A stretch of DNA of 55,038 nt from Clostridia bacterium (GTDB taxonomy: Bacteria; Bacillota; Clostridia; Christensenellales; CAG-138), in assembly GCA_033813015.1 (NCBI GenBank), contig JAPXSN010000002.1:1-55038 (forward strand), read 5' to 3'. How positions within the stretch are numbered: the stretch's first letter is position 1; the number at the start of each line of letters is the position of its first letter. The translations under genes and the position numbers were made by a program. The notes under the pieces were generated by a model, which worked only from the letters and a program-made list of their open reading frames with translations, was not told where the DNA came from and ran no database searches. Shown piece after piece: positions 13,703 to 54,757 of the stretch.

Positions 13703-13716
13703 TCGCTATCCCTCCC

Positions 13717-36694: not shown

Positions 36695-37290
36695 TCGATT
36701 TCAGAGGACTTGTCATCATATTGGTCAGCGCGGTGCTCGTCAACAATTATGTGCTCCAGCGCTTCCTGGGCATCTGCCCGTTCCTGGGCGTTTCAAAGCA
36801 ATTAAGCAGCGCAACGGGCATGAGCATCGCCGTCATCTTCGTCATGATGCTCTCGACCGCCGTGACCTGGCCGATACAGACCTACCTGCTGGAGCATTTT
36901 GGCATCGGATATCTGCAAACGATCGTGTTCATACTCGTGATCGCCGCGCTGGTGCAGCTTGTCGAGATTGCGCTCAAAAAATATGTGCCCGGCCTATACC
37001 GCGCGCTGGGTATCTATCTGCCGCTGATTACGACCAACTGCGCAGTGCTGGGCGTGACCATCTCCAACATAGACGCCGGTTACGGCTTTTTGCAGTCCAT
37101 GATAAACGCCCTCGGCTCGGGCCTCGGCTTCTTCCTCGCGATGGTGCTTTTTTCCGGTGTGCGCTCGCGCATGGAGGAAGCGGACCCGCCGGAAGCATTT
37201 GCAGGACTCCCGCTGACGCTGACGGCGGCCGCTATCGTGTCGCTGGCGTTCTTCGGCTTCACCGGCGTCATCGAAAACCTGTTCGGATAA
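36691..37290 (+). CDS. rnfA: Rnf complex subunit A
   Basis: 199 aa. …NNYVLQRFLGICPFLGVS… The GTG start overlaps the rnfE stop. Confidence 0.9.
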   Translation: MIDFRGLVIILVSAVLVNNYVLQRFLGICPFLGVSKQLSSATGMSIAVIFVMMLSTAVTWPIQTYLLEHFGIGYLQTIVFILVIAALVQLVEIALKKYVPGLYRALGIYLPLITTNCAVLGVTISNIDAGYGFLQSMINALGSGLGFFLAMVLFSGVRSRMEEADPPEAFAGLPLTLTAAAIVSLAFFGFTGVIENLFG

Positions 37291-37300
37291 GGAGGACGCG

Positions 37301-38125
37301 ATGAACCCTATTTTGATTTCCGTGCTCTGCGTGACCGGCATAGGCGTACTGTGCGCCGTCATACTGGCCATCGCCTCCAAGGTAATGAGCATTAAAACCG
37401 ACGAGCGCCTGCCCGAGATACGCGAGATACTCCCCGGCGCGAACTGCGGCGCATGCGGCTTCGCGGGCTGCGACGGATACGCCGCGGCCCTGATCGAAGG
37501 GAATGTCAAGACAAACCTCTGCACGCCGGGAGGCGATGCAGCAGCCCTTCGCCTGAGCGAAAAGCTGGGGCTCGCGTATGAGGATGTGATCGAGAAGGTG
37601 GCGTACGTTCGCTGCGGCGGGAACAGCCGCGCGGCGAAAGACATGGTGGAATATCAGGGCATACAGACCTGCGCGGCCGCGACGCTTCTGCACGGCGGCC
37701 AGAAGCTCTGCCCGAGTGCCTGCCTGGGCTTCGGCGACTGCGCGCAGGCCTGCCCATACGGCGCTATACGCGTCGCGGACGGCCTCGCGCAGGTGATCTC
37801 CGCCCGGTGTACGGGTTGCGGCCTGTGCGTTACCGCCTGCCCAAAGGGGATCATCGCCGTGGTGCCGGATGAAGTCCGCATCGCCGTCGCCTGCTCCAGC
37901 CATCAAAAGGGCGCGGCTGTGCGCCGCGCGTGCGAGGTCGGCTGCATCGCCTGCCGCCGCTGCGAAAAGGAGTGTCCCGAGGGCGCCATCCGGGTTGTGG
38001 ACGAGCTCGCCGTCATCGACTATGATAAGTGCACGGCTTGCGGCCGCTGCGTCGAGGTGTGCCCCACCCACTGCATCCATGCCGCCGATTTTCGCGGAGC
38101 GAGCAAGCGGCAGGGCTTCGTCTGA
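37301..38125 (+). CDS. rnfB: Rnf complex subunit B (polyferredoxin)
   Basis: 274 aa. N-terminal TM helix, CGACGFAGC, and several CxxCxxCxxxCP motifs. An AGGAGG RBS precedes the start. Confidence 0.9.
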   Translation: MNPILISVLCVTGIGVLCAVILAIASKVMSIKTDERLPEIREILPGANCGACGFAGCDGYAAALIEGNVKTNLCTPGGDAAALRLSEKLGLAYEDVIEKVAYVRCGGNSRAAKDMVEYQGIQTCAAATLLHGGQKLCPSACLGFGDCAQACPYGAIRVADGLAQVISARCTGCGLCVTACPKGIIAVVPDEVRIAVACSSHQKGAAVRRACEVGCIACRRCEKECPEGAIRVVDELAVIDYDKCTACGRCVEVCPTHCIHAADFRGASKRQGFV

Positions 38126-40824: not shown

Positions 40825-41697
40825 TCAGTCGCGCCGCGTTTTCCAGACCCTGCGATATTCCGCGGGCGTGATTCCCTCGTGCGCCCGGAACAGCTTGATG
40901 AAATGGCTCACGGTCTCGATGCCCGTTTCCGCGGCCACGGCGGATACCGGTATTTCCGTCATGCGCAAAAGTTCCTTGGCGTGCGCGACGCGCAAGGCTG
41001 CAAGATAGCCGTATGGGGAAAGCCCTGCGTGACGCGTAAAGAGCTTTTGCAGGTAATACTTGTTGATGGAAATTTCCTTCGACAATCGTTCCAGCGTGAC
41101 CCGCTCCCGAAAATGCGCCGCCATATAGTCCATAGCCTGCCGCACATAGGCGGGCTGCGCGGCATCGGCATGGCCGGCGGCCCCGCAGACGCACTCCGCC
41201 ATGATACCCAAAAGCAATGCGGCCGCCCGGACGTCGGCATTCGGTTCCGGCGCGTTGCGGTAGAGGCCGAGCAGTTCGTAAATGCGCGCGGAGACGCTGT
41301 TGTTCGCGGGGAGTTCCCCGGAATTCGCACCGTTTACGGCGAGGAAGCGCCGATACAGATAGTCGCATTCGGCTCCGTAGAAGTGCACCCAGACCACGCG
41401 CCAGTTGCCCGTGCGCTCGCTTGTGCAATAATACTGCTGCTTCTGGCAGTCTATCCAGAAAAAGCTGCCCTGCGGCAGAAAAACATCCTGCCCTTCATAG
41501 ACGAGGCGGCCTTCGCCCGAAAGCGTGTATTTGATCAAATATGAGGGCAGCTCCTCACGCGCCGTAAAGTATTCTCCGCGCGCGATAAAATCGCCCGCCT
41601 CCTGCACATAGGGCAGGTTGCCCCTCGCGCCCGCGCCCGCAGAAACGATGAGCCATTCCGATTCGGGTGCCATGTCAATTTTATAGGAGATCTTCAT
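40825..41697 (-). CDS. AraC-family transcriptional regulator (cupin sensor plus HTH_18), RhaR/RhaS-like by position
   Basis: 290 aa. C-terminal …ISINKYYLQKLFTRHAGLSPYGYL…ETGIETVSHFIKLFRAHEGITPAEYRR. It is divergent from rhaA. Confidence 0.85.
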   Translation of the reverse strand: MKISYKIDMAPESEWLIVSAGAGARGNLPYVQEAGDFIARGEYFTAREELPSYLIKYTLSGEGRLVYEGQDVFLPQGSFFWIDCQKQQYYCTSERTGNWRVVWVHFYGAECDYLYRRFLAVNGANSGELPANNSVSARIYELLGLYRNAPEPNADVRAAALLLGIMAECVCGAAGHADAAQPAYVRQAMDYMAAHFRERVTLERLSKEISINKYYLQKLFTRHAGLSPYGYLAALRVAHAKELLRMTEIPVSAVAAETGIETVSHFIKLFRAHEGITPAEYRRVWKTRRD

Positions 41698-41843
41698 GAG
41701 GTTGTCTCACATGCCAACATCGAAATATTTTTTGTCAACTTCGCATGCTGAAAAACACGCGAGCCCTTTGATATAATAATTTTAGCATATTGGCGATGCG
41801 ACAACAATGGAATGTTTGAGCATCATAAAGCGAGGAGAGCTCT

Positions 41844-43094
41844 ATGAATCGGGACGCCGTCATAAAAGCATACGAATACGCGCGCGAGATCTTTGCCGAA
41901 TACGGCGCGGACGCGGAGCTTGCCATACAGAAAGCGGACGTTGTGCCCGTTTCCATGCAGTGCTGGCAGGGGGACGACGTCATCGGCTTCGACGGCGCAA
42001 AGAGCCTTTCCGGAGGCATTGCCGCCACGGGCAATTATCCGGGTCGCGCGCGCACGCCTGAGGAACTGCGCTCGGACATCGTTATGGCGCGCTCGCTCAT
42101 ACCGGGCAGCGTCAAGGTAAGCCTGCACGCCTGCTATGCCGAAAAGAAAAACGCGGCGACGGATCGAGACGCCTACACCATCGCCGATTTCGAAACATGG
42201 GCGGACTGGGCAAAAGAGAGCGGCTTCGGCCTCGACTTCAACCCGACGTTCTTCTCCCACCCGATGATGGACGGGGACTTCTCGCTTTCGAGCTTCGATG
42301 AGACGAAGCGCCGCTTCTGGGTCGAGCACGGCAAACGCTGCCGCGTGATAGGCGCAGAACTCGCCAAGCGCACGGGCGAACCCTGTGTCGTCAACTTCTG
42401 GATGCCTGACGGCTACAAAGACACCTGTGTGGACACCGTCCGCCGCAGGGAGGTCATGACGCGCTCGCTCGACGAGATTTTCGCCTACGGCCCCAACCCG
42501 CTTGCGCCCTGCTCCATCGAAAGCAAGCTTTTCGGCGTGGGACTCGAGAGCCATACCGTAGCGAGCCACGAATACGCGCTGTGCTACGCGCTCACGCGCA
42601 ATCTGGCCTACTGCCTCGACGCCGGGCACTTCCACCCCACAGAGGTCGTGAGCGCCAAGCTCACCGCTGTTTTGCAGTTCTTGCCAAGCGTTCTTTTGCA
42701 CATCTCGCGCGGCGTAAGGTGGGACAGCGACCATGTCGTTTCCTTCGACGACGAACTGCAGCGCGTCATGGATGAGATCATCTGGAACGGGCTCGAAAAC
42801 CGCGTTTACATCGGACTCGACTATTTCGACGCCTCGATCAATCGAGTCGCAGCCTGGGCCATCGGCATGCGCAACGCAAGAAAGGCTCTGCTCGCCGCCT
42901 ATCTCGCGCCTTCGGACAAGCTGCGCGAGGCGGAGCAAAGCGGGGATTATACCACGCGGCTCGCCCTTTTGGAGGAGCGAAAGACCCTGCCCCTCGGCGC
43001 GGTGTGGGCTTACTACTGTATGACGCGCGGCGTTCCGCTCGACTTCATGCCCGAGGTGAAGCGCTACGAGACGGAAGTTCTCTCAAGGAGGTGA
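41844..43094 (+). CDS. rhaA: L-rhamnose isomerase
   Basis: 416 aa. …VSMQCWQGDDVIGF…, …SLHACYAE… and …CLDAGHFHPTE… are RhaA signatures. Confidence 0.9.
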   Translation: MNRDAVIKAYEYAREIFAEYGADAELAIQKADVVPVSMQCWQGDDVIGFDGAKSLSGGIAATGNYPGRARTPEELRSDIVMARSLIPGSVKVSLHACYAEKKNAATDRDAYTIADFETWADWAKESGFGLDFNPTFFSHPMMDGDFSLSSFDETKRRFWVEHGKRCRVIGAELAKRTGEPCVVNFWMPDGYKDTCVDTVRRREVMTRSLDEIFAYGPNPLAPCSIESKLFGVGLESHTVASHEYALCYALTRNLAYCLDAGHFHPTEVVSAKLTAVLQFLPSVLLHISRGVRWDSDHVVSFDDELQRVMDEIIWNGLENRVYIGLDYFDASINRVAAWAIGMRNARKALLAAYLAPSDKLREAEQSGDYTTRLALLEERKTLPLGAVWAYYCMTRGVPLDFMPEVKRYETEVLSRR

Positions 43095-43097
43095 CGC

Positions 43098-44162
43098 ATG
43101 GACAGCTTCTTTGAAACGCATCAAACCGAGCTTTCGAACTTCGCCGCGCTCTCGCAAGCCATCGGTGCGCGGGCGGACTATGTGCAGGGCGGCGGCGGCA
43201 ACACCTCGGTCAAGCTCGGAAGCGAGCTTATGGCCATCAAGGCCTCGGGGTACAAACTGAGCGACATTCGCTCAGACGCGGCCTACGCTGTGCTCGACGG
43301 GAAAAACATGCGCGAATTCTACCTTGCACATGAGCCGGATGATTTTGCCGACGTTGAAAAGGAGTGCGCCGCCTTTACAAAAGCGCAAGTCAAAGAAATC
43401 GCAGGGCTCTCCCCCTTGCGTCCTTCGGTCGAGGCGGGATTCCACTCTCTGCTCGACCGGTACGTGATCCACAGCCACAGCGTATACTGCAACCTCATTA
43501 CCTGCGTTGAGGAATGCGAAAGCCTCCTCCATGCGGCGTTTTTGAACGCATCGTTCGCTTGGGGATGGGTTCCTTACGCTGATCCCGGCGCGCGCCTCAC
43601 GTTTTCCCTGCGCGACGAAATAAAGCGCGTCGAGAGGAAAACGGGAAAACGCCCCTCGGTGCTCCTCATGCAGAACCACGGCCTCATCGTCCACAGCGAT
43701 GACCCGGATGCCTGTCTCGCGCTTCACAGCGAGGCCAACGAGCGCGCAGCGGCGTATTTCGGGTTCTGCGGCGCATCCTTCCCCGCAGTTGCCATCCGTC
43801 AAACGGGCGAGAACGTGTTCGTTTCGGATACGCCGTATCTTTGCGAATATCTCAGGGGAAGCGCATATCCGGTTGAAAAGCTGTTGTCGCAGCCGCTCTA
43901 TCCCGACCAGATGGTATTTCTGACGGGTGCGCTGGGCGAAACGGCGACCATCGACCGCACGGCCGGCGCGGTTTCCTACCGCATGTCTGAAAGCGCCGCG
44001 CTCGCGCTGGAGCAGACGCTCGCGGCGGTGGTATTCATTGAGGAAACGCTTGCGGCGGCGGGATACGCCGTGCGCTCCATGGGCGAGTCGGCGAAGGCCT
44101 TCATCGCCAACTGGGAAAGCGAAAAATACCGCAAGCAGCTTGCAGAAGGGGCGAAACCGTGA
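43098..44162 (+). CDS. Class II aldolase/adducin-family protein, resembling the aldolase half of bifunctional RhaEW (candidate rhamnulose-1-phosphate aldolase)
   Basis: 354 aa. …YVQGGGGNTSVKLG…IKASGYKLSDI…PSVEAGFHSLL…VIHSHS… The operon position is between rhaA and rhaB. Confidence 0.7.
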   Translation: MDSFFETHQTELSNFAALSQAIGARADYVQGGGGNTSVKLGSELMAIKASGYKLSDIRSDAAYAVLDGKNMREFYLAHEPDDFADVEKECAAFTKAQVKEIAGLSPLRPSVEAGFHSLLDRYVIHSHSVYCNLITCVEECESLLHAAFLNASFAWGWVPYADPGARLTFSLRDEIKRVERKTGKRPSVLLMQNHGLIVHSDDPDACLALHSEANERAAAYFGFCGASFPAVAIRQTGENVFVSDTPYLCEYLRGSAYPVEKLLSQPLYPDQMVFLTGALGETATIDRTAGAVSYRMSESAALALEQTLAAVVFIEETLAAAGYAVRSMGESAKAFIANWESEKYRKQLAEGAKP

Positions 44163-45637
44163 CGCGCGACATGCTCGCCTTCGACCTGGGCGCCTCCAAC
44201 GGGCGCGCGGTGCTCGCGCGCTTCGACGGCGAAAGGTTGGCGCTTGCGGAACTGCATCGCTTCGGAAACGCACCGTATGAGAAAAATGGCTTATCGCATT
44301 GGAATGTCAACGGGCTGTTTCATGAGCTGAAAAAGGGCTTCCACGCTTATCGGCAGACCGTCGGAGGCGAACTTGCGAGCTTTGGTATAGACACCTGGGG
44401 AGTGGATTACGGCCTGCTCGGCGCGAACGGCGTTCTTTTGGGTGACCCGCGCGCCTACCGCTGCGCGAGCGACGCTGAAATGGAACGCGCCTGGGAGAGG
44501 GTGGACAAGCGCGCGCTCTTCGAGCGCACGGGCATCGCAGCGATGAACTTCAACACCGCGTATCAGCTTTACAGGCGCGTCCTTGAGATCGACGCTGAGC
44601 TTCACAACGCGCATACGCTGCTGCTGATGCCCGACCTTTTGGGATATCTCTTTACGGGCGACCGGCTCACCGAATACACCAACGCGACAACGACAAACCT
44701 GTACAACCCTTCGGCGGGCGCGTGGGATTGGGAAACCATCCGCGCGCTGGACTTGCCGGAGGAAATCTTCACCCCGACAGACTGCGCGGGAACGCTGCGC
44801 GGCCCCATCCGCACGGAACTCGCGCAGGGACTGGGCACGAAGGGAACGCTTCTTGCCGCCGTCGGCACACACGACACCGCCTCGGCAGTGGCGGCCATTC
44901 CGGGATCGGGCAGTTTCGCGTTCTGCTCAAGCGGCACATGGTCTCTGTTCGGCGTGGAAACCGACAGATCCGTGCTGACGGATACCGTGTATAAAGCGAA
45001 TTTTTCCAACGAGGGTACCGTGCAGGGCGGCTTCCGTCCGCTCAAGAACATCATGGGGCTGTGGCTCGTCCAGGAATGCCGCCGCGAATGGGCGCGCGAG
45101 GGAAAAAAGCTTTCGTGGGATGAGATCGTACGGCTCGCGGAAAAGGAAGCACCTTTTCATTCCATTATCGATCCGGACGACGCTCCGTTCTTCTCTCCCG
45201 GCAACATGCGGGCGAAAATACGGGCATACTGCAAAAACACCGGGCAGCCCGCGCCGGAAACGATCGGCCAGTTCGCGCGCTGTATCTATGAGAGCCTCGC
45301 GCTCAAATGCCGCCGCGCGCTCGAAACGCTCGAGGCCATCAAGGGCAGCCGCATCGACGCGCTCAACATGGTGGGCGGCGGCATTCAAAATGGACTGCTC
45401 AATCAGATGACGGCGGACGCTTTAGGGCGCACGGTCATCACCGGCCCGACCGAGGGCGCATGCGCGGGCAATGCGCTCATGCAGGCGCAGGCGCTGGGCG
45501 AAATCAAGAACATTGCGGAAGCACGCGAGGTGGTGCGGCGCTCGTTCCCGCTTGAAGTTTGGGAGCCGCGACAAATATCCGCGTGGCAGGACGCTTACGG
45601 CCGACTTCTGGAATACATGGAGGGAAAACGCGCATGA
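44159..45637 (+). CDS. rhaB: Rhamnulokinase (FGGY family)
   Basis: 492 aa. …LAFDLGASNGRAVLARFDGERLALAELHRFGN… The GTG start overlaps the preceding stop. Confidence 0.88.
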   Translation: MTRDMLAFDLGASNGRAVLARFDGERLALAELHRFGNAPYEKNGLSHWNVNGLFHELKKGFHAYRQTVGGELASFGIDTWGVDYGLLGANGVLLGDPRAYRCASDAEMERAWERVDKRALFERTGIAAMNFNTAYQLYRRVLEIDAELHNAHTLLLMPDLLGYLFTGDRLTEYTNATTTNLYNPSAGAWDWETIRALDLPEEIFTPTDCAGTLRGPIRTELAQGLGTKGTLLAAVGTHDTASAVAAIPGSGSFAFCSSGTWSLFGVETDRSVLTDTVYKANFSNEGTVQGGFRPLKNIMGLWLVQECRREWAREGKKLSWDEIVRLAEKEAPFHSIIDPDDAPFFSPGNMRAKIRAYCKNTGQPAPETIGQFARCIYESLALKCRRALETLEAIKGSRIDALNMVGGGIQNGLLNQMTADALGRTVITGPTEGACAGNALMQAQALGEIKNIAEAREVVRRSFPLEVWEPRQISAWQDAYGRLLEYMEGKRA

Positions 45638-46509
45638 TCAACATGAGGCATTGGGAGGATATCGCGCGCGCGAACGCGAACAACCGCCCGCAAACGAATG
45701 GCCGCCTATCGGGGAAGATCGCTCTTGTTACGGGCGGCGCACAGGGCTTCGGGCGGGGCATCGCGGAGGAATTATATCGCGAGGGCGCGCGCGTCTGCAT
45801 CGCCGACCTCAATGGGCCGCAGGCCATAAAGGCCGCCACGTCCCTCGGAGAGCGCGCCTTTGCCCTAAAGGCCGACGTAACGGACGAGGCGGATGTTGCT
45901 AGTATGGTCGCTGCGTGCGCGGAGCGCTTCGGCGGGCTCGACCTGCTCATCTCCAACGCGGGTATCCTGAGAGCGGGTTCGCTCGACGAAATGGAGAAAG
46001 CGGACTTTGAGCTCGTCACGGCCGTCAACTACACGGCATTCTTCACCTGCGTCAAATACGCGAGCCGCATCATGAAGGCGCAGCACGAGGGCGCGCCTGA
46101 GGCTTTTTACGACATCATAGAGATCAACTCCAAATCCGGTCTCGTCGGCAGCGAAAAGAACTTCGCCTACGCGGGCGGCAAGTTTGGCGGCATCGGTCTT
46201 ACGCAGAGCTTCGCACTCGAGCTTGCACCGTGGAACATCAAGGTTAACGCCGTCTGCCCCGGCAACTACTACGACGGGCCGCTCTGGAGCGACCCCGAGC
46301 GCGGCCTGTTCGTGCAATACCTGCGCGCGGGCAAAGTACCGGGCGCGAAGACCGTGGAGGATGTGAAAGCGCATTATCTCAAAAAATCGCTCATCAAGCG
46401 CGGCTGCGCACCCGCCGACGTGGCAAAGGCCATCCTCTACGCCGTGGAGCAGACGTTTGAAACGGGTCAGGCAATACCTGTGACGGGCGGGCAGGTGATG
46501 CTCAGGTGA
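45634..46509 (+). CDS. SDR-family oxidoreductase, sorbitol-6-phosphate dehydrogenase (SrlD)-like
   Basis: GKIALVTGGAQGFGRGIA, then …IIEINSKSGLVGSEKNFAYAGGKFGGIGLTQSFALELA…VTGGQVM, which closely recalls SrlD/GutD-type SDRs. There is an ATGA overlap with rhaB. Confidence 0.75.
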   Translation: MINMRHWEDIARANANNRPQTNGRLSGKIALVTGGAQGFGRGIAEELYREGARVCIADLNGPQAIKAATSLGERAFALKADVTDEADVASMVAACAERFGGLDLLISNAGILRAGSLDEMEKADFELVTAVNYTAFFTCVKYASRIMKAQHEGAPEAFYDIIEINSKSGLVGSEKNFAYAGGKFGGIGLTQSFALELAPWNIKVNAVCPGNYYDGPLWSDPERGLFVQYLRAGKVPGAKTVEDVKAHYLKKSLIKRGCAPADVAKAILYAVEQTFETGQAIPVTGGQVMLR

Positions 46510-47573
46510 TCGACAGGCTTCTGCTTGATAGACTCAACGCGTCCGCGAAGGAAGAGCGGCTTTGCGCCCTGCGGGAAGCGCTCAAAACGGCGGCATTCCC
46601 GCCCGTGGACGCGCGGCTCGTGAACAACCACATCCACACGACATTCTCGTTTTCGCCCTACTCTCCCGCCGCCGCGGTTTATGCCGCGCGTGCCGAAGGA
46701 CTTTGCACCTGCGGCATCGTGGATCACGATTCTATGGGCGGCGCGGAAGAATTCATCGAGGCGGGAAAGCTCGCGGGCATCCCGACGACCGTAGGGGTCG
46801 AGTGCCGCGTTTCCATGGCGGACACGCCGTTTGGAAGCCTGCGCACCAACAATCCCGATCAAGTCGGTTTGAGCTATATGGTGATGCACGGCATGCCGCA
46901 ACGTTTCATTCCGCGCGTGCAGGAGTTCTTCGCACCCCTTCGCGAGCGCCGCAACGCGCGCAACCGCGCTATGCTCGCGCGCATCAACCGGAAAATAGAC
47001 GTTGAGCTCGATTTCGAGCGCGACGTGCTGCCCCTCTCCCAATATGCAAACGGCGGCACGGTCACGGAGAGGCATCTCCTGCAGGCACTCGCGCGGAAAA
47101 TAGCGCCGCAGAATGATCTGCTTGCAGAATACGACCTTATCGGCAGGCTCAAAAAGGACTGCATCCCGGATGTTTACATTGAGGCGACGGACGAATGTCC
47201 CCTGCTCGCGCAAATCGCCGCGCTCGCCGAAGAAACGCACGCCATACTTTGTTACGCGTATCTGGGCGACGTGACGGAATCCGTCACCGGCGACAAGAAG
47301 GCGCAGCGCTTCGAGGATGAGCGCCTCGACGCACTGTTTGAAACGCTCGGCGCAAGCGGCATCCGCGCCGTCACCTATATGCCCACGCGCAACACGGACG
47401 CGCAGCTTGCGCGCGTGCGCGCGCTGTGCGAGCAATACGGTTTCATGCAGGTGAGCGGCGAGGACATCAACTCGCCAAGGCAAAGCTTCATCATCGAAAA
47501 AATGCGCGACGTGAACTTCGCGAACCTCATCGAGAGCACATGGGCCATTATCCGCAACGAAAGAGAGGCGTAA
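46506..47573 (+). CDS. PHP-domain metal-dependent phosphoesterase
   Basis: 355 aa. …VNNHIHTTFSFSPYSP…GIVDHDSMGG… is the PHP motif. The GTG start overlaps the SDR stop. Confidence 0.75.
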   Translation: MIDRLLLDRLNASAKEERLCALREALKTAAFPPVDARLVNNHIHTTFSFSPYSPAAAVYAARAEGLCTCGIVDHDSMGGAEEFIEAGKLAGIPTTVGVECRVSMADTPFGSLRTNNPDQVGLSYMVMHGMPQRFIPRVQEFFAPLRERRNARNRAMLARINRKIDVELDFERDVLPLSQYANGGTVTERHLLQALARKIAPQNDLLAEYDLIGRLKKDCIPDVYIEATDECPLLAQIAALAEETHAILCYAYLGDVTESVTGDKKAQRFEDERLDALFETLGASGIRAVTYMPTRNTDAQLARVRALCEQYGFMQVSGEDINSPRQSFIIEKMRDVNFANLIESTWAIIRNEREA

Positions 47574-47657
47574 GATGAACCTTTCCTATCTGCATCCGGC
47601 CGACTTCACGGCGATGTTCATGCAGCGCACCTACGACCGCGTTAGGAGGTACCAATT

Positions 47658-48926
47658 TTGAAGACGAAAGCCCTGCGCCTCTACGGCGCGAACGATCTGA
47701 GGCTGGAGGAATTCGAGCTCGGCCCCGTCGGGGACGACGACGTCCTGTGCGAGGTCGTTTGCGACAGCCTCTGCATGTCGAGCTATAAGGAGCTTACCCA
47801 AGGCGCGGCACACAAGCGCGTGCCGCAGGATGTCGCGCAAAATCCGGTCATCATCGGACACGAGTTTTGCGGAAGGATCCTCGAGGTTGGCAGGAACTGG
47901 CGGCACAAATATCAGGAAGGCGCCGGCTTCGCCATACAGCCCGCGCATTTCTATAACGGATCTCTATCCGCCCCCGGCTACTCCTACCCGCTGTGCGGCG
48001 GCGACGCGACGCATGTGAAGATCCCCAAGGACATACTGCTTGCGGATTGTCTGCTGCCCTATGAGAGCGACACGTTTTTTTTCGGCTCTCTCGCGGAACC
48101 CATGAGCTGCATCGTGGGCACGTTCCACGCCATATACCACACGAAACCCGGCAGCTATGAGCATCAAATGGGCATTGCGCAGGGCGGCAAGCTCGCGCTG
48201 CTCGCAGGCGCGGGGCCTATGGGCCTCGGCTCCATCGATTACGCGCTGCACTGTGAGCGCAGACCGGGACTTTTGGTGGTAACGGATATTGACGAGGGGC
48301 GCCTTGCGCGGGCGCAGAGCATCTATACCTTGGAGCACGCGGCGGAATGCGGCGTCAAACTCGTCTATCTCAACACCGCGAAAGCCGAAGATCCTGTTTC
48401 CGCACTGGTGGAACTTGCGGGCGGTTCCGGCTTCGACGACGTGATCTGCTTCGCGCCCGTGCGCACAGTCGTCGAGCAAGCGGACGCCATCCTCGGCTTC
48501 GATGGCTGCCTCAACTTCTTCGCGGGGCCGTCGGACACGGCTTTTTCGGCTCCCGTCAACTTCTACAACGTCCACTATGCAAGCCATCATCTGGTCGGCA
48601 CGTCGGGCGGCAACACCGGGGACATGCGCGAGGCCATCGCGCTTATGAACGCAGGCAAAATCAATCCTGCGGCCATGATCACGCACATAGGCGGGCTCGA
48701 CTGCGCAGCCGAAACCACGGCGAACCTTCCTCGCATCCCGGGTGGGAAGAAGCTCATCTACAACCAGATCAGTCTGCCGCTGACCGCGCTCGCGGACTTC
48801 GGGGAAAAGGGCAAATCCGACCCTCTGTTTCGAAAGCTCAACGAAATCGTGAACGCGCACAACGGCTTATGGTGTGCCGAGGCCGAGAACCACCTGCTCG
48901 CGCACGCAAGAACGGAGGCGAACTAG
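47658..48926 (+). CDS. Zinc-type MDR dehydrogenase, L-sorbose-1-phosphate reductase (SorE)-like
   Basis: 422 aa. MKTKALRLYGANDLRLEEFELGPV…DSLCMSSYKELTQGAAHKRVP…IIGHEFCG…. The TTG start lies 7 nt after AGGAGG. Confidence 0.7.
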   Translation: MKTKALRLYGANDLRLEEFELGPVGDDDVLCEVVCDSLCMSSYKELTQGAAHKRVPQDVAQNPVIIGHEFCGRILEVGRNWRHKYQEGAGFAIQPAHFYNGSLSAPGYSYPLCGGDATHVKIPKDILLADCLLPYESDTFFFGSLAEPMSCIVGTFHAIYHTKPGSYEHQMGIAQGGKLALLAGAGPMGLGSIDYALHCERRPGLLVVTDIDEGRLARAQSIYTLEHAAECGVKLVYLNTAKAEDPVSALVELAGGSGFDDVICFAPVRTVVEQADAILGFDGCLNFFAGPSDTAFSAPVNFYNVHYASHHLVGTSGGNTGDMREAIALMNAGKINPAAMITHIGGLDCAAETTANLPRIPGGKKLIYNQISLPLTALADFGEKGKSDPLFRKLNEIVNAHNGLWCAEAENHLLAHARTEAN

Positions 48927-48927
48927 C

Positions 48928-50160
48928 ATGGCTACGGCGGTCATTTTGCCCAAGCAGGGGCAATCGGTCGAAAGCTGCGTCATCGGGGAGTGGCTAAAAA
49001 AGGTCGGCGATGAGATCAGGGTCGGCGATGTGCTGTTCACCTACGAAACGGACAAATCCGCCTTCGCGGAGGAAGCCAAAACGGATGGCACGCTGCTTGC
49101 CGTATTCTTTGAGCAGGGAGAGGATGTGCCCTGCCTGACTACGGTAGCCCTCATAGGGCAACGGGGTGAGGATGTTTCCTCTTTTGTACCCAAAAGCGGC
49201 GTGAGCCCTGTGCAGAAAGCAGCGATACCCGCGCAGGCCGAATTTTTCGCGGCCTCCTTCGCGCCTACTGCGGAGCGCGCTTCGGGCGTATCTGCGCGCG
49301 CACGGGCGGCGGCGGAACGCATGAATCTCGATATCAACAACGCCGCGCCCTCCGGCCCGAACGGTCGTATCATCGAGCGCGACGTGCTCGCCCTCGCGGG
49401 GAACCGCATAGGGGGTATTGGGCAGACCGCCGCGCCGCAGACCGGCGCGCAAACGCCGCTTATGGCTGTCGGCGCGTTTAAGGATGAAAAAATGTCCCCA
49501 GCGCGCCGCATCATCGCCAAGAATATGTTCGAGAGCCTGCAGGGCACGGCGCAGCTCACGCACACGGCCTCGTTCGACGCGACGGAGATACTCGCGCTTC
49601 GCGCGTGGTATAAGGTAGAGAAGGTCGCCGTCACGCTCAACGACATGATCCTCTTTGCCGCGTCGCGCGTGCTCAGAAGCTGCGCTTACATGAACGCCCA
49701 CTGTTTGGGTGAAACGTTGCGGACTTTCGAGCATGTCCACCTCGGCGTCGCGGTTGATACGCCGCGCGGCCTTCTCGTGCCCACGCTGTTCAACGCGGAT
49801 GAAAAGAGTCTCGCAGAAATCGCAGCGGAGGCTCGTTCGCTCGCGCTTGCTGCGCGGGATGGGAACATTTCGCCCGATCTTCTCCAGGGCGGCACGTTTA
49901 CGGTATCGAATCTCGGCGCATATGGAATCGAGCACTTCACGCCCGTCATCAATCCGCCGCAGGTGAGCATCCTCGGCGTAAACTGCATCACGGAGCGCGT
50001 GCGCACATTGAACGGCGTCGTCACAACCTATCCCGCGATGGGGCTTTCGCTGACCTACGATCACCGCGCGGTGGACGGTGGGCCCGCGTCGAAGTTTTTG
50101 CAGGAGCTCGCCAATGCGCTCGCGCATTTTGACGAGACGGCCGCGCAGTGCGGCATTTGA
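48928..50160 (+). CDS. Dihydrolipoamide acyltransferase (E2) of a 2-oxoacid/acetoin dehydrogenase-type complex
   Basis: Lipoyl domain with YETDKS, a peripheral-subunit-binding-like segment (…APSGPNGRIIERDV…), and the catalytic motif LTYDHRAVDGGPA. Confidence 0.88.
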   Translation: MATAVILPKQGQSVESCVIGEWLKKVGDEIRVGDVLFTYETDKSAFAEEAKTDGTLLAVFFEQGEDVPCLTTVALIGQRGEDVSSFVPKSGVSPVQKAAIPAQAEFFAASFAPTAERASGVSARARAAAERMNLDINNAAPSGPNGRIIERDVLALAGNRIGGIGQTAAPQTGAQTPLMAVGAFKDEKMSPARRIIAKNMFESLQGTAQLTHTASFDATEILALRAWYKVEKVAVTLNDMILFAASRVLRSCAYMNAHCLGETLRTFEHVHLGVAVDTPRGLLVPTLFNADEKSLAEIAAEARSLALAARDGNISPDLLQGGTFTVSNLGAYGIEHFTPVINPPQVSILGVNCITERVRTLNGVVTTYPAMGLSLTYDHRAVDGGPASKFLQELANALAHFDETAAQCGI

Positions 50161-50181
50161 ATAAAGTGAGGCGAACAAACG

Positions 50182-52647
50182 ATGAGTAAACAGTTGACCG
50201 TCGATCCCTCGAAGGTACGGAAACCCGAGGCGTGTCGCGTTCCGGAAATCCCCGTGAATGTCTATCAGAAGAGCGTGAAGGACGAGCTTTCGAACTTCAT
50301 AAAGGATGAGTTTTTGCGCATCTATCGCGACATGTGCATGATCCGCGAATTTGAAACCATGCTCAACCTCATTAAGACCACGGGCGAGTATCGCGGCGTC
50401 GCTTACGATCATCCCGGCCCCGCGCATTTGGGCATCGGGCAGGAGGCGACCTACGTCGGCGCGGCGTATTGCCTGACGCTTGAGGATGTTACCTTCGGCT
50501 CGCACCGCAGCCACGGCGAGATTCTCGCCAAAGGGCTGCGTTCCATAGAAATCCTTCCGGAGGCAGAGCTGCTCGGCGTCATGGAGGGCTTCTTCGGCGG
50601 CAAGACCTACCGCGCAGCGCGAGAGGAAGGCAAGAGCATCCGTGAGAACGGCCTGAGCTTCCTGCTCTACGGTACGATGTGCGAGATCTTCGCGCGAGAG
50701 AACGGCTTCAACAAGGGTCTGGGCGGGTCGATGCACGCATTCTTCACGCCGTTTGGCATTTACCCCAACAACGCCATCGTCGGCGGCAGCGGCTCCATCG
50801 CGCCGGGCGCGGCGCTCTATAAGCTCATCAACAAAAAACCCGGCGTTGTCGTCTGTAACATTGGCGACGGCTCGCTTGCCTGCGGCCCCGTTTGGGAAGG
50901 GCTCATGATCTCCGCCATGGACCAAGTGCGAACCCTCTGGGGAAAGAACGGCGGCGCAATGCCGATACTCTATCATATCAACGACAACTTCTACGGCATG
51001 GGCGGGCAGACGCGCGGGGAAACCATGGGCTACGACATGGCTGCGCGCGTGGCGGCGGGCGTTCGACCGGACGCTCTAAACGCAGAGCGCGTAGACGGCT
51101 ACAATCCTCTCGCCGTAATAGACGCATACAGGCGAAAGCTCCCATTGGCGAAATCCGGCGGGCCGGTCTTCCTCGACGTGGTGACTTATCGCATCTCCGG
51201 GCACAGCCCTTCGGATTCCTCAACCTACCGCACCAAGGAGGAGATCGCCGCGTGGGAAGCGCAGGACTCCATACTCTCATTCGGCGCGCAGCTCGTCGAA
51301 GCGGGCGTCGCCACGCAAAGCAGCCTCGACGCAATCCGAAAGAAGGTGGATGAAGACATCTTCCGTTGCTTCCGACTAGCGGCCGACGAGAAAATCTCCC
51401 CGCGCGCGGATGTGTTTGGCGCGCAGAATGATTTCATAGGCAATCTGATGTTCTCGAACCGGACCGTACGCGCTTTCGACGCGGATAGGAAGCCCGACGT
51501 ACTCCTGCCCTACGAGGAATGTCCGCGCGTGCAGCAGATCGCCAAGAAGGCGCGCTTCGCCTTCGATGAAGCCGGAAACCCCATCTCGAAAAACAAGGTC
51601 TACCAGCTTCGCGACGGCATAGCGGAACCGATCATAAAAAAGTTTTATGAAGACCCTACGCTCGCCGCCTTCGGCGAGGACGTGCGGGACTGGGGCGGCG
51701 CATTCGCGGTCTATCGCGGCATGACGGAGGCCATTCCCTATCATCGCCTGTTCAACACGCCCATCGCGGAAGCGGGCATCGTAGGCGCGGCGGTTGGTTA
51801 TGCCATGAGCGGTGGCCGCGCGATCGCCGAGATCATGTACTGCGACTTCGTCGGCCGCGCGGGCGACGAAATCTTCAACCAGCTTTCCAAGTGGCAGGCA
51901 ATGAGCGCGGGGCTCATTAAAATGCCGGTGGTTCTTCGCATGAGCGTAGGCAGCAAGTACGGCGCGCAGCACTCGCAGGATTGGTCTGCGCTGATCGCGC
52001 ACATCCCGGGCTTGAAGCTTGTCTTCCCCGCCACGCCCTATGACGCAAAGGGGCTCATGCAAAGCGCACTCAACGGCACCGACCCGGTGGTCTTTCTCGA
52101 GAGCCAGCGCATCTACGACGCGGGCGAACAGTTCCATGCGGGAGGTGTGCCCGAGGCGGAATACGAGATCCCCATCGGTGAGCCGGACATCAAGCGCGAG
52201 GGCAAGGATGTGACCATCCTCTCCATAGGAGCGACGCTGTATCGCGCGCTCAGGGCTTGCGACATTTTGCAGGAGAAATACGGCGTTTCGGCGGAGCTCA
52301 TCGACGCGCGCTCACTGGTGCCGTTCAATTACGAGCCGGTCCTGGCGAGCGTCAAAAAAACCGGCCGCATCGTCGTGACCGGAGACGCTTGCGAGCGCAA
52401 CAGCTTTATGCGCAACATGGCAAGCTGCATCGCCGAGCTATGCTTCGACGATCTTGACGCGCCGCCCGTGGTAGTGGGTGCTAAAAATTGGATTACCCCC
52501 GCGCACGAAATGGAAAACGCCTTCTTTCCGCAGCCGGAGTGGATCGTGGATGCGATACATGAGCGCATCCTGCCGCTGCCCGGGCATATTTGCCGGCACA
52601 ACTTCACGCTGCTGGAGCAAGTGCGGGAGAATCAGCGAGGGGTCTAG
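50182..52647 (+). CDS. Fused E1 alpha-beta TPP-dependent dehydrogenase component
   Basis: 821 aa. The alpha part carries the TPP motif (…NIGDGSLACGP…INDNFYGMGG…). The beta part is transketolase-like (…FNTPIAEAGIVGAAVGYA…, …FPATPYDAKGL…). Confidence 0.85.
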   Translation: MSKQLTVDPSKVRKPEACRVPEIPVNVYQKSVKDELSNFIKDEFLRIYRDMCMIREFETMLNLIKTTGEYRGVAYDHPGPAHLGIGQEATYVGAAYCLTLEDVTFGSHRSHGEILAKGLRSIEILPEAELLGVMEGFFGGKTYRAAREEGKSIRENGLSFLLYGTMCEIFARENGFNKGLGGSMHAFFTPFGIYPNNAIVGGSGSIAPGAALYKLINKKPGVVVCNIGDGSLACGPVWEGLMISAMDQVRTLWGKNGGAMPILYHINDNFYGMGGQTRGETMGYDMAARVAAGVRPDALNAERVDGYNPLAVIDAYRRKLPLAKSGGPVFLDVVTYRISGHSPSDSSTYRTKEEIAAWEAQDSILSFGAQLVEAGVATQSSLDAIRKKVDEDIFRCFRLAADEKISPRADVFGAQNDFIGNLMFSNRTVRAFDADRKPDVLLPYEECPRVQQIAKKARFAFDEAGNPISKNKVYQLRDGIAEPIIKKFYEDPTLAAFGEDVRDWGGAFAVYRGMTEAIPYHRLFNTPIAEAGIVGAAVGYAMSGGRAIAEIMYCDFVGRAGDEIFNQLSKWQAMSAGLIKMPVVLRMSVGSKYGAQHSQDWSALIAHIPGLKLVFPATPYDAKGLMQSALNGTDPVVFLESQRIYDAGEQFHAGGVPEAEYEIPIGEPDIKREGKDVTILSIGATLYRALRACDILQEKYGVSAELIDARSLVPFNYEPVLASVKKTGRIVVTGDACERNSFMRNMASCIAELCFDDLDAPPVVVGAKNWITPAHEMENAFFPQPEWIVDAIHERILPLPGHICRHNFTLLEQVRENQRGV

Positions 52648-52721: not shown

Positions 52722-53270
52722 TCAGAGGCAGCCGTTTTCCGTGTTCCAGCCGATCACGACAGGCAACAGCTCCTCAAACAGCGCGTCCCTGTTTTCTCCG
52801 TCTATCCGATAAACCCTTGCGTTCGGATGGGCGCGCACCTCGTTGAGGAAAGGCACGTCGAAGCGGTCCTTCACCGCGGCGATGGCCGGTATGCGCCCGT
52901 CCAGCGCTCGAAAGACGGCCTGAACGAATGCTTCCGCCCGGGCCTCCATGAAGCCCAACTCATCCATGACGATGACGCCGTCCGGCCGGGCCTCGGAAAT
53001 GTATTGCACGCCGAGCGAATTGAATACTTCGAGAGCCACCTCGCGCTCCTTTGAATTGCATACGCCTATCCGGTTTTCAGCATCATGTACCCGTTCGGAC
53101 GCGCCCGCCGGATGGATGTAAACGGGATGAAAGCCCGTTTCGTCGGCCGCAAGCCGCTTTGTGACGAAGCCGTATACGGGCCGCGCGCTGTGCGCGAGCA
53201 GTTTTTGGATCAGTGTGCTTTTGCCGATTCCGCGCTCCCCGCAGATGAGGATATGCCTGGGCTGCATCAT
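52722..53270 (-). CDS. Nucleoside-triphosphatase, THEP1/NTPase_1-like P-loop protein
   Basis: MMQPRHILICGERGIGKSTLIQKLL…VIVMDELGFME (Walker A and B). The ATG at 53270 lies 7 nt after GAGG. Confidence 0.7.
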   Translation of the reverse strand: MMQPRHILICGERGIGKSTLIQKLLAHSARPVYGFVTKRLAADETGFHPVYIHPAGASERVHDAENRIGVCNSKEREVALEVFNSLGVQYISEARPDGVIVMDELGFMEARAEAFVQAVFRALDGRIPAIAAVKDRFDVPFLNEVRAHPNARVYRIDGENRDALFEELLPVVIGWNTENGCL

Positions 53271-53366
53271 ATGTTTGCCTCGCTTATACAACGTTTTAAC
53301 CCGCACAGCGGTATTGGAAACTTTGTACCGCCATTCCTTTCCCCAGACCGTTGACGGAGAGCCAGC

Positions 53367-54563
53367 CTAATTGTCAATTCTCCAAAATCGCATCCCTCCT
53401 GCATAATCGCACGCCTGCAAAACCGCGCCCGCGCGCGCAGATAGGCGCACGCCTGGCGCTGGAAGCAGCGCGTAGTTTTCGGAATGAAAGATTCCTTTTG
53501 CGTCTATGGCGCCGAGGGCAGCGTAGGCGACGCCCCATTTGCTCGAAAATCCACGGAACGTGAGCTCGACCCGCCCGTCCGCGCGGGATACGGCGTAGTC
53601 CGCTGAAATGTCGGCTTCCGGCATGACAGGATACTCGATGCGCATCTCGGCGGCGTCCTTGAGCAAGGAACCCTCGCGGTGCCCCTCGAGCTGGCGACGG
53701 CGCAGCATGCCCATCGCGGCCGGGGAGGAATCCACAGCGAGGTAGCATCGGCCGAGCGAGGAAGCCGCGGCCGCCGTCGTGCCGCTTCCGGAAAAGAAGT
53801 CCGCCACGAGGTCGCCCTGCTTCGAGGAAGCGAGTATCATGCGGCGTAACAGCGCCGCGGGCTTCTGCGTCGCAAAGCCCGTGCGCTCGGGATCGCGCTG
53901 GTGCATGTGCTCGATGTCGTCCCACACGTCGCTCGGGTAAATGGGCGTATCCTCATAATAGGTGTAGGTCTTGCCGCCGGAGCGGATGGAAAAGCACACG
54001 CGCCCGTCCGCGTCGACGGTACGCTTCATGTTGTTGCGCTTCTGCGGGCCGCGCGGCATGCCCACGGCCGCGATGTCGAAGTAGACCGAGGGGGATTTTC
54101 GGTAGAAGAGTATGGTGTCGTGCTTCCTCGAATAGTGCCGCAGAGAGCGCCCGCCGGATTTGTAGGTCCAGACGATCTCGTTGAGGAAGTTTTCCTCGCC
54201 GAAGATCTCGTCCATCACGAGGCGCAGCTTCGCGCTCATCCTGTAGTCGATGTGCAGGTAGATCGAGCCGTCGGCCGCGAGCAGCGCGTGGCAGGCGCGA
54301 AGCACCTTTCGCATCATGCCGAGATACGCTTTCTCGCCGAGGCTGTCCGAATAGACCGGCACGACGAGCTTCTGCTTCGCGCCCGCAGGCTTGATGGAGA
54401 AGGTTTCGCCCGTTCCGAAGGGCGGGTCGATGCAGATCAGGCGCACGCGGCCTTCATACTCGCCCAGAAGCTCGGACGCGAGCTCCTCCGCCCTGCCGAG
54501 CAGGAAACGGCCGGGGCCTCCCACCGGGTACGCTTCGCCCCGGACGACGAAATTCCGTTCCAT
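53367..54563 (-). CDS. Site-specific DNA methyltransferase, beta-class N6/N4 type (probably N6-adenine), with a ~100-aa C-terminal extension
   Basis: Motif IV LICIDPPFGTGE precedes motif I DLVADFFSGSGTTAAAA. This is the beta permutation, and DPPF favours m6A. The ATG at 54563 follows GGGAGGG. Confidence 0.8.
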   Translation of the reverse strand: MERNFVVRGEAYPVGGPGRFLLGRAEELASELLGEYEGRVRLICIDPPFGTGETFSIKPAGAKQKLVVPVYSDSLGEKAYLGMMRKVLRACHALLAADGSIYLHIDYRMSAKLRLVMDEIFGEENFLNEIVWTYKSGGRSLRHYSRKHDTILFYRKSPSVYFDIAAVGMPRGPQKRNNMKRTVDADGRVCFSIRSGGKTYTYYEDTPIYPSDVWDDIEHMHQRDPERTGFATQKPAALLRRMILASSKQGDLVADFFSGSGTTAAAASSLGRCYLAVDSSPAAMGMLRRRQLEGHREGSLLKDAAEMRIEYPVMPEADISADYAVSRADGRVELTFRGFSSKWGVAYAALGAIDAKGIFHSENYALLPAPGVRLSARAGAVLQACDYAGGMRFWRIDN

Positions 54564-54757
54564 ACCGTCCCTCCCACATGATGATATGTTGCGTCCGGAC
54601 ATGCCAAGGCGAAAAGGCTTCCGCGATTCCCGGGGGATTGTCAAGCGGCCGCGGCCCCCTGGCTTTCGTACCTTCCGCGCTTTGCTGCCCGGAAACGCGC
54701 AGCGTTTCAGGCAAAGCGTGCACTCTCAAAAAAACGGCGAAGCCGCTTTTTTGATAT

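Follow-up and report, generated by a model that had tools for sequence, protein, structure and literature searches.

A candidate nontextbook rhamnose operon in a Clostridia bacterium links sorbose-type dehydrogenases to a fused thiamine-dependent E1

Introduction

Rhamnose is common in plant pectin and in bacterial glycans. In textbook accounts, anaerobes degrade it to 1,2-propanediol, which is then converted to propionate or propanol. For another sugar, L-sorbose, Klebsiella and Lacticaseibacillus use a pathway in which SorE and SorD/SorF/SrlD move the carbonyl of a ketose-1-phosphate from C2 to the other end of the molecule via a hexitol phosphate. Here we analyze a 55,038-nucleotide (nt) stretch of a Clostridia bacterium genome (Christensenellales; assembly GCA_033813015.1, contig JAPXSN010000002.1), referred to below as the window, in which a rhamnose isomerase gene opens a run of eight genes that brings enzymes resembling those of the sorbose pathway together with parts of a lipoyl dehydrogenase complex. 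One described system that shares homologous domains with this run is RhaEW, the bifunctional rhamnulose-1-phosphate aldolase/L-lactaldehyde dehydrogenase of Bacillus subtilis (YuxG) and Chloroflexus (PMC3870299). A full-text literature search returned no description of the cluster itself; its component families are all known, and the combination and the reaction proposed below are undescribed in the literature searched.

Results

A run of eight genes with a likely nontextbook function

We consider it likely that this operon encodes some route for rhamnose other than the textbook one. The specific scheme that we favor, a sorbose-like carbonyl transposition followed by lipoyl-complex cleavage of the product to acetyl coenzyme A (acetyl-CoA) and a tetrose-4-phosphate, is a tentative proposal argued from sequence and gene context. 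That the eight genes form one rhamnose-responsive operon is predicted from their layout and is as tentative as the scheme to which it belongs.

Between positions 41844 and 52647 of the plus strand, eight intact reading frames lie head to tail with almost no spacing. The first, rhaA (41844-43094), has no operon gene ahead of it and is followed after 3 nt by a class II aldolase-like gene (ALD; 43098-44162), whose stop overlaps by 4 nt the GTG start of an FGGY kinase gene (44159-45637; gene callers on sister contigs prefer an alternative ATG start at 44171). An ATGA overlap (45634-45637) leads from the kinase into a short-chain dehydrogenase/reductase gene (SDR; 45634-46509), and a GTGA overlap (46506-46509) leads from there into a gene for a PHP-family phosphoesterase (PHP; 46506-47573). 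Beyond an 84-nt gap comes a medium-chain dehydrogenase/reductase gene (MDR; 47658-48926), then, 1 nt past its stop, a lipoyl E2 gene (48928-50160) and, 21 nt further on, a gene for a fused E1 alpha-beta chain of 821 amino acids (aa) (50182-52647). The original prediction had read these same junctions as one apparent transcription unit with no room for a terminator, and both the junctions and the reading hold. A single sigma-70-like promoter candidate, a consensus match with 10 of 12 hexamer positions and an extended -10 TG, lies upstream of rhaA (41748-41777, plus strand), and no terminator-like site was found in any intergenic gap of the operon; over the whole region, the number of such sites equals the shuffled expectation. 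An AraC-family regulator gene (40825-41697, minus strand; Pfam AraC_binding and HTH_18) diverges from the operon, as it also does in the comparison loci L004 to L006, L087, L175, and L177. Pfam and NCBIfam uphold the domain calls of all eight operon proteins.

The layout is not an assembly artifact, since the same gene order, the same gene stump between PHP and MDR (see below), and the same lack of E3 recur in two independent further assemblies of the species (L175, GCA_964627285.1; L177, a contig from a Logan run). All eight genes are intact in the three assemblies, and dN/dS between the window and L175 is 0.09 to 0.41 for every one of them; L177, which hardly differs from the window, is uninformative on selection.

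Enzymes for entry of rhamnose and for a proposed transposition of the carbonyl

RhaA belongs to its Pfam family (PF06134, 524 bits; cut-off, 22) and scores 567.7 bits with NCBIfam NF002203, slightly below the equivalog cut-off of 572. The FGGY kinase scores 424 bits with the rhamnulokinase model TIGR02627 (cut-off, 528) and only 125 bits with the fuculokinase model; as the rhamnulokinase model is its best FGGY match by far, the enzyme is probably rhamnulokinase-like.

MDR is 50 to 53% identical, over 99% of its length, to yggP of Escherichia coli and to genes that PGAP names sorE (L-sorbose 1-phosphate reductase) in Klebsiella, Citrobacter, and Serratia. With the MDR of a plasmid-borne sorbose operon of Lactiplantibacillus plantarum it shares 42% identity; that operon also includes an SDR, a SorC-type regulator, and a phosphotransferase system (PTS) for sorbose. 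The full-length match, together with zinc ligands of the C-x-GHE type, a GAGPMG Rossmann motif of the NAD type, and an aspartate after beta-2, suggests a zinc-dependent ketose-1-phosphate reductase of the SorE/YggP family, in agreement with the earlier description of the protein as sorbose-1-phosphate-reductase-like.

The companion description of SDR as sorbitol-6-phosphate-dehydrogenase-like holds as well. The best named relatives of SDR are srlD genes (37 to 39% identity), but its score with the sorbitol-6-phosphate dehydrogenase model NF009050 (219 bits) is below the equivalog cut-off of 307, which leaves it outside the SrlD equivalog, and it is equally close to the RhaW domain of Aminobacter RhaEW (40% identity over 178 aligned residues). 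The motifs TGGAQGFG, D58, NSKSG, and YxxxK are present, and SDR scores 157 bits with PDB 5o3z. SDR fits best as an NAD-type enzyme of an SrlD/RhaW subfamily, as close to RhaW as to SrlD. A second SDR in the window (21467-22018) is 37% identical to the operon SDR over 190 residues.

A lipoyl E2, a fused E1 of an unusual clade, and no E3

E2 carries the Pfam domains Biotin_lipoyl, E3_binding, and 2-oxoacid_dh (221 bits) and the motifs ETDKS, with the lipoyl lysine, and YDHRAVDG, as does the E2 of a 2-oxoacid or acetoin dehydrogenase complex. E2 is complete, and its earlier reading as a functional-looking protein with lipoyl-lysine motif, subunit-binding segment, and DHRAVDG was correct. In E1, the Pfam domains E1_dh, Transket_pyr, and Transketolase_C lie in one 821-aa chain with the features of a thiamine-diphosphate-dependent E1, and this chain is 73 to 83% identical to the 120 best-scoring database homologs listed. 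It resists assignment to a named class. The beta part scores 237 to 242 bits against pyruvate dehydrogenase (PDH) cut-offs of 454 and 321 and the alpha part 187 bits against 394, which leaves E1 outside the PDH models; it falls below every NCBIfam equivalog cut-off and is equidistant from the beta subunits of PDH and branched-chain ketoacid dehydrogenase (BCKDH) at about 216 bits each. Placement as a PDH, BCKDH, or acetoin type was tried, and neither PDB nor NCBIfam allows it.

Among the E1s of a plasmid collection, the fused E1s of Rhizobium johnstonii pRL8, Agrobacterium pAt15955, and Pleomorphomonas are 50 to 53% identical to the window E1 over 97% of its length, and all the others are 30 to 35% identical. 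The clusters around these alphaproteobacterial fused E1s hold a lipoyl carrier and an AcoC-type hydrolase-fold acyltransferase (NF011457, 153 to 202 bits), XylB equivalogs (463 to 495 bits; cut-off, 380), and a fructokinase-like PfkB, along with a psicose-3-epimerase-like protein, a DalD-like polyol dehydrogenase, SorC-type regulators, sugar ABC transporters, and lipA; none of them contains an E3. Because the fused-E1 clade is tied across phyla to an AcoC-type E2 and to ketose kinases, its substrate would be a sugar-derived hydroxyketone rather than pyruvate, and this cross-phylum context, though indirect, is the strongest support for that view. In keeping with the original prediction, the E1 clade goes with sugar kinases rather than with ordinary PDH, BCKDH, or acetoin genes, and the ordinary E1s are the distant ones.

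The alphaproteobacterial loci L084 (R. johnstonii 3841 pRL8, 82 to 99 kb of the record), L085, and L086 are uncharacterized fused-E1 clusters with a free lipoyl carrier, and they look like a sister system that acts on another ketose phosphate. The Rhizobium E1 cluster is not discussed in the pRL8 transcriptome paper.

The original prediction reported no E3 in the window, and tblastn over the 55 kb upholds this for E3 and finds no LplA either, so that the operon lacks the dedicated E3 of a 2-oxoacid or acetoin dehydrogenase complex. In relatives (L002, L006, L007, L009, and L014), E3 lies between E2 and E1, often with LplA behind. In the window, the 21 nt that separate E2 from E1 (50161-50181) are similar to the 3' terminus of E3 and the ribosome-binding region of E1 in L006 (14950-14976), consistent with loss of E3 by clean excision.

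A proposed pathway

In the scheme that we favor, RhaA and the FGGY kinase would, by homology, convert L-rhamnose to L-rhamnulose and then to rhamnulose-1-phosphate. By analogy with the sorbose pathway, the SorE-family MDR would reduce the C2 keto group of rhamnulose-1-phosphate, or of an epimer made by ALD, to give a 6-deoxyhexitol-1-phosphate, and the SrlD-like SDR would oxidize C5, the last carbon but one at the opposite end. Together, the two reactions would shift the carbonyl from C2 to C5 and produce a 1-deoxy-2-ketohexose 6-phosphate with an acetoin-like CH3-CO-CHOH- group. To judge by the chemistry and the neighboring genes, the fused E1 and E2, joined by an E3 encoded at another site in the genome, would cleave this compound between the keto and carbinol carbons, yielding acetyl-CoA, NADH, and a tetrose-4-phosphate that would pass into pentose-phosphate metabolism.

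Some other assignments were considered and rejected. An action of E1 on hydroxyacetone or methylglyoxal would free formaldehyde or formate, for which we found no support; an ordinary 2,3-butanediol/acetoin cluster does not agree with an MDR and an SDR of sugar-phosphate types; and ALD and PHP as an aldolase/phosphatase pair of the sedoheptulose-bisphosphate kind, assimilating erythrose-4-phosphate, an attractive idea, would fail on stereochemistry, since a RhaE/RhaD-type enzyme would not yield sedoheptulose.

Distribution of the module

We scanned one genome per species with PHP as the query and obtained 80 loci, whose hosts span Clostridia, Christensenellales, Oscillospiraceae, Lentisphaerae, Spirochaetota, Actinomycetota, Calditrichales, Limnochordia, and Halanaerobiaceae; the comparison loci, designated by L numbers, were annotated by tblastn and clustering of open reading frames. 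Among the loci gathered, PHP is present in 84, of which 32 extend at least 8 kb beyond the gene in both directions. A module of ALD (in a 354-aa or a 277-aa form), SDR, PHP, MDR, and E2-E3-E1 recurs, often with LplA or LipA, and 22 of the 32 long-flank loci have E1 at most 10 kb from PHP.

Three gene orders place this block together with rhaA and a rhamnulokinase-like gene (KIN). One is that of the window and L006; another, in Christensenellales (L007, L009, and L014), runs rhaA-ABC-ALD-KIN-SDR-PHP-MDR-E2-E3-E1-LplA, and L002, L003, and L011, whose sequences end upstream, are of the same type. The remaining order is DeoR/rhaA-MDR-SDR-PHP-ALD-E2-E3-E1-KIN, in L079, whose rhaA product passes the NCBIfam equivalog cut-off. 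Elsewhere the feeders differ from rhaA and include xylulokinase-like and fructokinase-like kinases, a mannitol-1-phosphate-dehydrogenase-like protein with transaldolase, and RpiR or DeoR regulators. Neighbors of E1 or of the module in other loci include transketolase (L001 and L092), transaldolase (L058, L067, and L061), and a TIM-like gene with ribulose-phosphate 3-epimerase (L090); all of these fit a tetrose-phosphate product. Other E1 orthologs are accompanied by a pair of SDRs, a DUF89 phosphatase, transketolase, and LplA.

ALD and the remnant of a second aldolase gene

ALD matches Pfam Aldolase_II (64 bits) and, at 46 to 47 bits, the N-terminal part of bifunctional aldolase/SDR models, to which its short form scores about 100 bits. 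The catalytic set is invariant in 13 aligned sequences (GGGNTS, RPSVE with E112, H125xH127, and NH194G) and comprises the phosphate-binding motif, the glutamate, and the three histidine ligands of the class II (zinc) aldolase/epimerase superfamily. The protein is 25% identical to the RhaE domain of Aminobacter RhaEW, carries a C-terminal extension, and matches the MtnB model weakly (21 bits). The best structure match of its profile is the uncharacterized protein 3m4r, and sequence searches of ALD, PHP, and MDR against solved structures gave weak or uninformative matches only. By sequence, ALD is distantly related to the RhaE domain, is not a canonical RhaD, and could be an aldolase or an epimerase; most likely it acts on a ketose phosphate in one of these roles and sets the stereochemistry.

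The 84-nt gap between PHP and MDR has the length given by the original prediction, but it is not a neutral spacer. It holds the stump (47575-47661, plus strand) of a deleted tandem gene for a FucA-like class II aldolase, which we call ALD2x and which, in the closest relatives L004 and L005, sits complete between PHP and MDR (430 aa). The gap reads MNLSYLHPADFTAMFMQRTYD..., and ALD2x of L004 and L005 begins VNLSYLHPADQLVMFMQRIYDKGLTTTSGG at exactly the same position; about 21 first codons match, and the stump product MNLSYLHPAD..MFMQR.YD aligns with VNLSYLHPADQLVMFMQRIYDKG of L004. The stump is identical in L177 and differs by one base in L175. Its 28-codon reading frame ends across the MDR start codon and may now serve as a leader or in translational coupling with MDR.

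Intact ALD2x scores 153 bits with fuculose-phosphate aldolase (FucA) models and 62 bits with RhaD. When metagenomes were scanned with ALD2x, minimal operons that consist solely of ABC-rhaM-rhaA-ALD-KIN-ALD2x came up, as did one operon of the order rhaM-rhaA-ALD-SDR-PHP-KIN-ALD2x. An Aminobacter rhamnose locus likewise has, besides RhaEW, an ALD homolog, an FGGY kinase, a HAD phosphatase, rhaI, rhaM, and a FucA-like aldolase. As an ALD-like protein, a kinase, and a FucA-like aldolase thus occur together in rha loci of two phyla (Clostridia, L105 to L107, L125, L131, and L142; and Aminobacter), ALD, instead of being itself the aldolase, may prepare the substrate for a FucA-type enzyme, for example as an AraD-like epimerase. 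A point against an epimerase is that ALD is fused to an SDR in L020, as in RhaEW.

This natural fusion (L020, 7999-9948) joins an ALD-type domain and an SrlD/RhaW-type SDR in 649 aa and is followed by PHP; its neighborhood is non-sugar and housekeeping-like (Hsp33, NIF3, and a sigma factor). In several Oscillospiraceae loci, SDR and PHP flank parE/parC-like genes.

A phosphoesterase of the TrpH/YciV-like fold

PHP exceeds the Pfam PHP cut-off (30 bits; cut-off, 26.4). Its AlphaFold model has a predicted local distance difference test (pLDDT) value of 91, and the best Foldseek matches are 3o0f/3e0f, 2yb1, and 9etk, with template modeling (TM) scores normalized to the target of 0.66 to 0.74 and a probability of 1.0 to 3o0f, 2yb1, and 9etk. 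Residues H42, H44, D73, H74, E99, H128, H190, D320, and N322 are invariant, so that the metal ligands are kept except for the final histidine of the D-x-H motif, which is an asparagine (N322). The modeled fold and these ligands suggest a metal phosphoesterase with a TrpH/YciV-like fold. PHP resembles the TrpH/YciV phosphoesterases (the pAp phosphatase Cv1693 and RNase AM) in its fold and most metal ligands and differs from them in its low identity (13 to 21%), the asparagine in place of the last histidine, its extra helices, and its context, which is sugar metabolism rather than nucleotide metabolism.

Related systems repeatedly have a phosphatase of one fold or another as a neighbor, and no PHP homolog was found in the plasmid collection. 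A further case of a phosphatase beside a SorE-family reductase is seen in E. coli (L089, cmtB-cmtA-yggP-glpX-like-fumE-yggC), where a class II fructose-bisphosphatase paralog follows the SorE-like yggP. The idea that PHP is the hub of the system was dropped as an artifact of its use as the search query.

Surroundings of the operon

The original prediction noted that the textbook genes FucO and pdu are missing; this is correct for the operon and its flanks, which are the part of the window that was checked for them. An orthologous rhamnose ABC transporter, rhaM, transaldolase, and lipA are likewise absent from the window. A sugar ABC transporter is encoded at 11712-15225 (minus strand), but its ATPase shares only 33% identity with the ABC ATPase that accompanies the rhamnose genes in Christensenellales. 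About 4 kb upstream of the operon lies an operon for an Rnf-type ion-translocating ferredoxin:NAD+ oxidoreductase (33170-38125; RnfC, RnfD, membrane subunits, and an RnfB-like Fe-S protein), which bears on how the extra NADH or ferredoxin of a more oxidative rhamnose route could be handled. Next to the AraC-family regulator gene, in the window as in L175 and L177, is a gene for a GH2 glycoside hydrolase of 803 aa (38197-40608, minus strand), which may release the sugar that feeds the operon. Immediately downstream of the operon, genes for an NTPase_1 protein and an N6/N4 DNA methylase (52722-54644, minus strand) converge with E1; L175 and L177 have this pair too.

Discussion

Several points weigh against the carbonyl-transposition scheme. 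PHP has no step in it. The stereochemistry of L-rhamnulose is such that a plain transposition would give D-threose-4-phosphate or L-erythrose-4-phosphate, not D-erythrose-4-phosphate, so that an epimerization (by ALD?) or an isomerization of the tetrose phosphate would be needed. E3 and LplA are lacking from the window, SDR is as much like RhaW as like SrlD, and ALD and SDR are fused in L020. The coupling between the complex and the module is loose: operons with rhaA, ALD, the kinase, SDR, PHP, and MDR but no E1/E2 within 10 kb exist (L004 and L005, which have ALD2x instead, and L087), and E1 orthologs with 77 to 79% identity stand alone or beside transketolase, without rha or module genes, from which it follows that the complex may have a general substrate. 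The original prediction had also counted the presence of the block without rha genes in most relatives as a refutation. This is partly the case: the three gene orders keep the block with rhaA, but in most distant relatives the module occurs without rha genes, and rhaA is present in only 7 of the 32 long-flank loci.

The main rival, which we rate only slightly below our own scheme, is a split version of the RhaEW route. Here, ALD and SDR would convert rhamnulose-1-phosphate to dihydroxyacetone phosphate and L-lactaldehyde and the latter to L-lactate, MDR would be a redox valve on lactaldehyde or a sugar phosphate, and E1/E2 would be a general complex of the pyruvate or acetoin type that happens to lie alongside. 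RhaEW activity has been shown in vitro and by knockout (PMC3870299), and the resemblance reaches both partners: ALD (47 bits) and its short form match the N-terminal domain of the bifunctional aldolase/SDR models, SDR aligns with the RhaW domain at the 40% identity given above, and the two are naturally fused in L020. With ALD2x deleted, the window has no other aldolase, and rha operons with ALD-SDR-PHP-MDR but no E1/E2, as well as solitary members of the E1 orthogroup, also speak for this route. Yet a split RhaEW leaves jobless a SorE-family MDR with 50% identity to ketose-1-phosphate reductases, and PHP is again unexplained. The minimal rhaM-rhaA-ALD-KIN-ALD2x operons contain no SDR and pair ALD with a FucA-like aldolase, so that ALD needs no RhaW partner there. 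Moreover, in Christensenellales, E2-E3-E1-LplA stands within the same gene run as rhaA, and the nearest non-Firmicute E1s are accompanied by sugar kinases and an AcoC-type E2 rather than by genes of pyruvate metabolism. A different model refines our preferred explanation rather than opposing it, although in itself it seems to us unlikely: ALD would be an AraD-like epimerase that turns rhamnulose-1-phosphate into another 6-deoxyketose-1-phosphate, such as L-fuculose-1-phosphate, which would be cleaved by the FucA-like ALD2x (the ancestral arrangement) or sent through MDR, SDR, and E1/E2, and only the oxidative branch would be left here. Such a branch point agrees with the full class II catalytic set of ALD, with the recurrent trio of ALD-like protein, kinase, and FucA-like aldolase in Clostridia and Aminobacter, with the preference of ALD2x for FucA over RhaD models, with its stump in the window, and with the absence of E1, E2, and E3 from the available sequence of the four PHP-query loci that have ALD2x (L004, L005, L054, and L060; L054 extends only about 3.6 kb downstream of PHP). 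The epimerase activity is hypothetical, however, and the nearest characterized relative, the RhaE domain, is reported as an aldolase (PMC3870299); many copies of ALD2x are solitary in housekeeping contexts, and L087 has neither ALD2x nor E1 near its operon.

Two further readings carry much less weight with us. That the operon is a decaying mosaic, with no working pathway here after the loss of ALD2x, E3, LplA, and any rhamnose transporter, we consider highly unlikely: two deletions relative to close relatives, and the lack of E3, LplA, rhaM, and an orthologous rhamnose ABC transporter in the 55 kb, speak for decay, but the eight frames are intact in three assemblies and have the dN/dS given above, the alphaproteobacterial fused-E1 clusters are likewise without their own E3, and genes for E3 and for lipoylation do not have to lie in the operon to serve it. 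Least probable of all is a route like methionine salvage, in which ALD would dehydrate rhamnulose-1-phosphate as MtnB does its substrate, PHP would strip the phosphate from the diketone, SDR and MDR would tune the redox state, and E1/E2 would cleave a hydroxyketone, for example to glycolaldehyde and 3-hydroxybutyryl-CoA. It is the only scheme with an obligatory step for the phosphatase, MtnB is of the same superfamily as ALD, and a phosphatase of some fold recurs beside such systems; against this stand the marginal MtnB match, the SorE-like and SrlD-like character of MDR and SDR, which are sugar-phosphate enzymes, and the want of a precedent or of supporting neighbor genes.

If the carbonyl-transposition scheme is true, the methyl end of rhamnose would become acetyl-CoA and the other four carbons would be kept as a sugar phosphate, with no half of the sugar excreted as 1,2-propanediol. 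The predicted products would shift toward acetate and hydrogen and away from propanediol and propionate, and more ATP would be predicted for gut Clostridia, Christensenellales among them, which are abundant and for the most part uncultured. Sugar phosphates would be added to the substrates of lipoyl dehydrogenase complexes, and this would be the first member of the 2-oxoacid dehydrogenase complex family shown to act on one. A function would also be given to a large fused-E1 family now labeled "alpha-ketoacid dehydrogenase subunit alpha/beta" and to its PHP, SorE-like, and aldolase-like partners. The broader claim, that gut and rumen Clostridia (Christensenellales, Oscillospiraceae, and their relatives) use a rhamnose route in which a lipoyl complex cleaves a sugar phosphate and that the fused-E1 systems of Rhizobiaceae do likewise with other ketose phosphates, is somewhat more speculative, and we advance it with reservation.

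The operon shares features with several known systems and matches none of them. It opens as the canonical RhaBAD/FucO/pdu route does, with RhaA and a rhamnulokinase-like enzyme, and departs from it in having no RhaD-type aldolase, a FucA-like ALD2x reduced to a stump, and no FucO or pdu in or beside it. ALD (25% identity) and SDR (40%) are homologous to the two domains of RhaEW and stand in a rhamnose operon, and the fused form exists in L020; here, however, they are two genes split by the kinase gene and score 46 to 47 bits (ALD) and 153 bits (SDR) against the TIGR02632 cut-off of 568, ALD occurs without any SDR in minimal operons, and the SorE-like, PHP, and E1/E2 partners are not part of described RhaEW loci. 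The dehydrogenases recall the sorbose pair, in that MDR is close to sorE/yggP, SDR is nearest srlD, and an MDR/SDR pairing is seen in L088. In contrast to the sorbose pathway, in which the sugar is fed by a PTS, a 6-deoxyhexose is here fed by RhaA and a kinase, the predicted product is a 1-deoxyketose-6-phosphate that glycolysis cannot use, and SDR reaches 219 of the 307 bits of the sorbitol-6-phosphate dehydrogenase cut-off. Compared with the acetoin dehydrogenase system (AcoA/AcoB/AcoC/AcoL), E1 alpha and beta are fused, E2 has a 2-oxoacid_dh domain rather than the AcoC hydrolase fold, ordinary E1s, including those of the acetoin type, are only 30 to 35% identical, and the context is one of sugar kinases and sugar-phosphate enzymes. 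The two systems nevertheless share a thiamine E1, a lipoyl E2, and, in relatives of the window, an E3; the nearest non-Firmicute E1s pair with an AcoC-type E2; and the predicted reaction is, as for acetoin, the cleavage of a methyl alpha-hydroxyketone to acetyl-CoA and an aldehyde.

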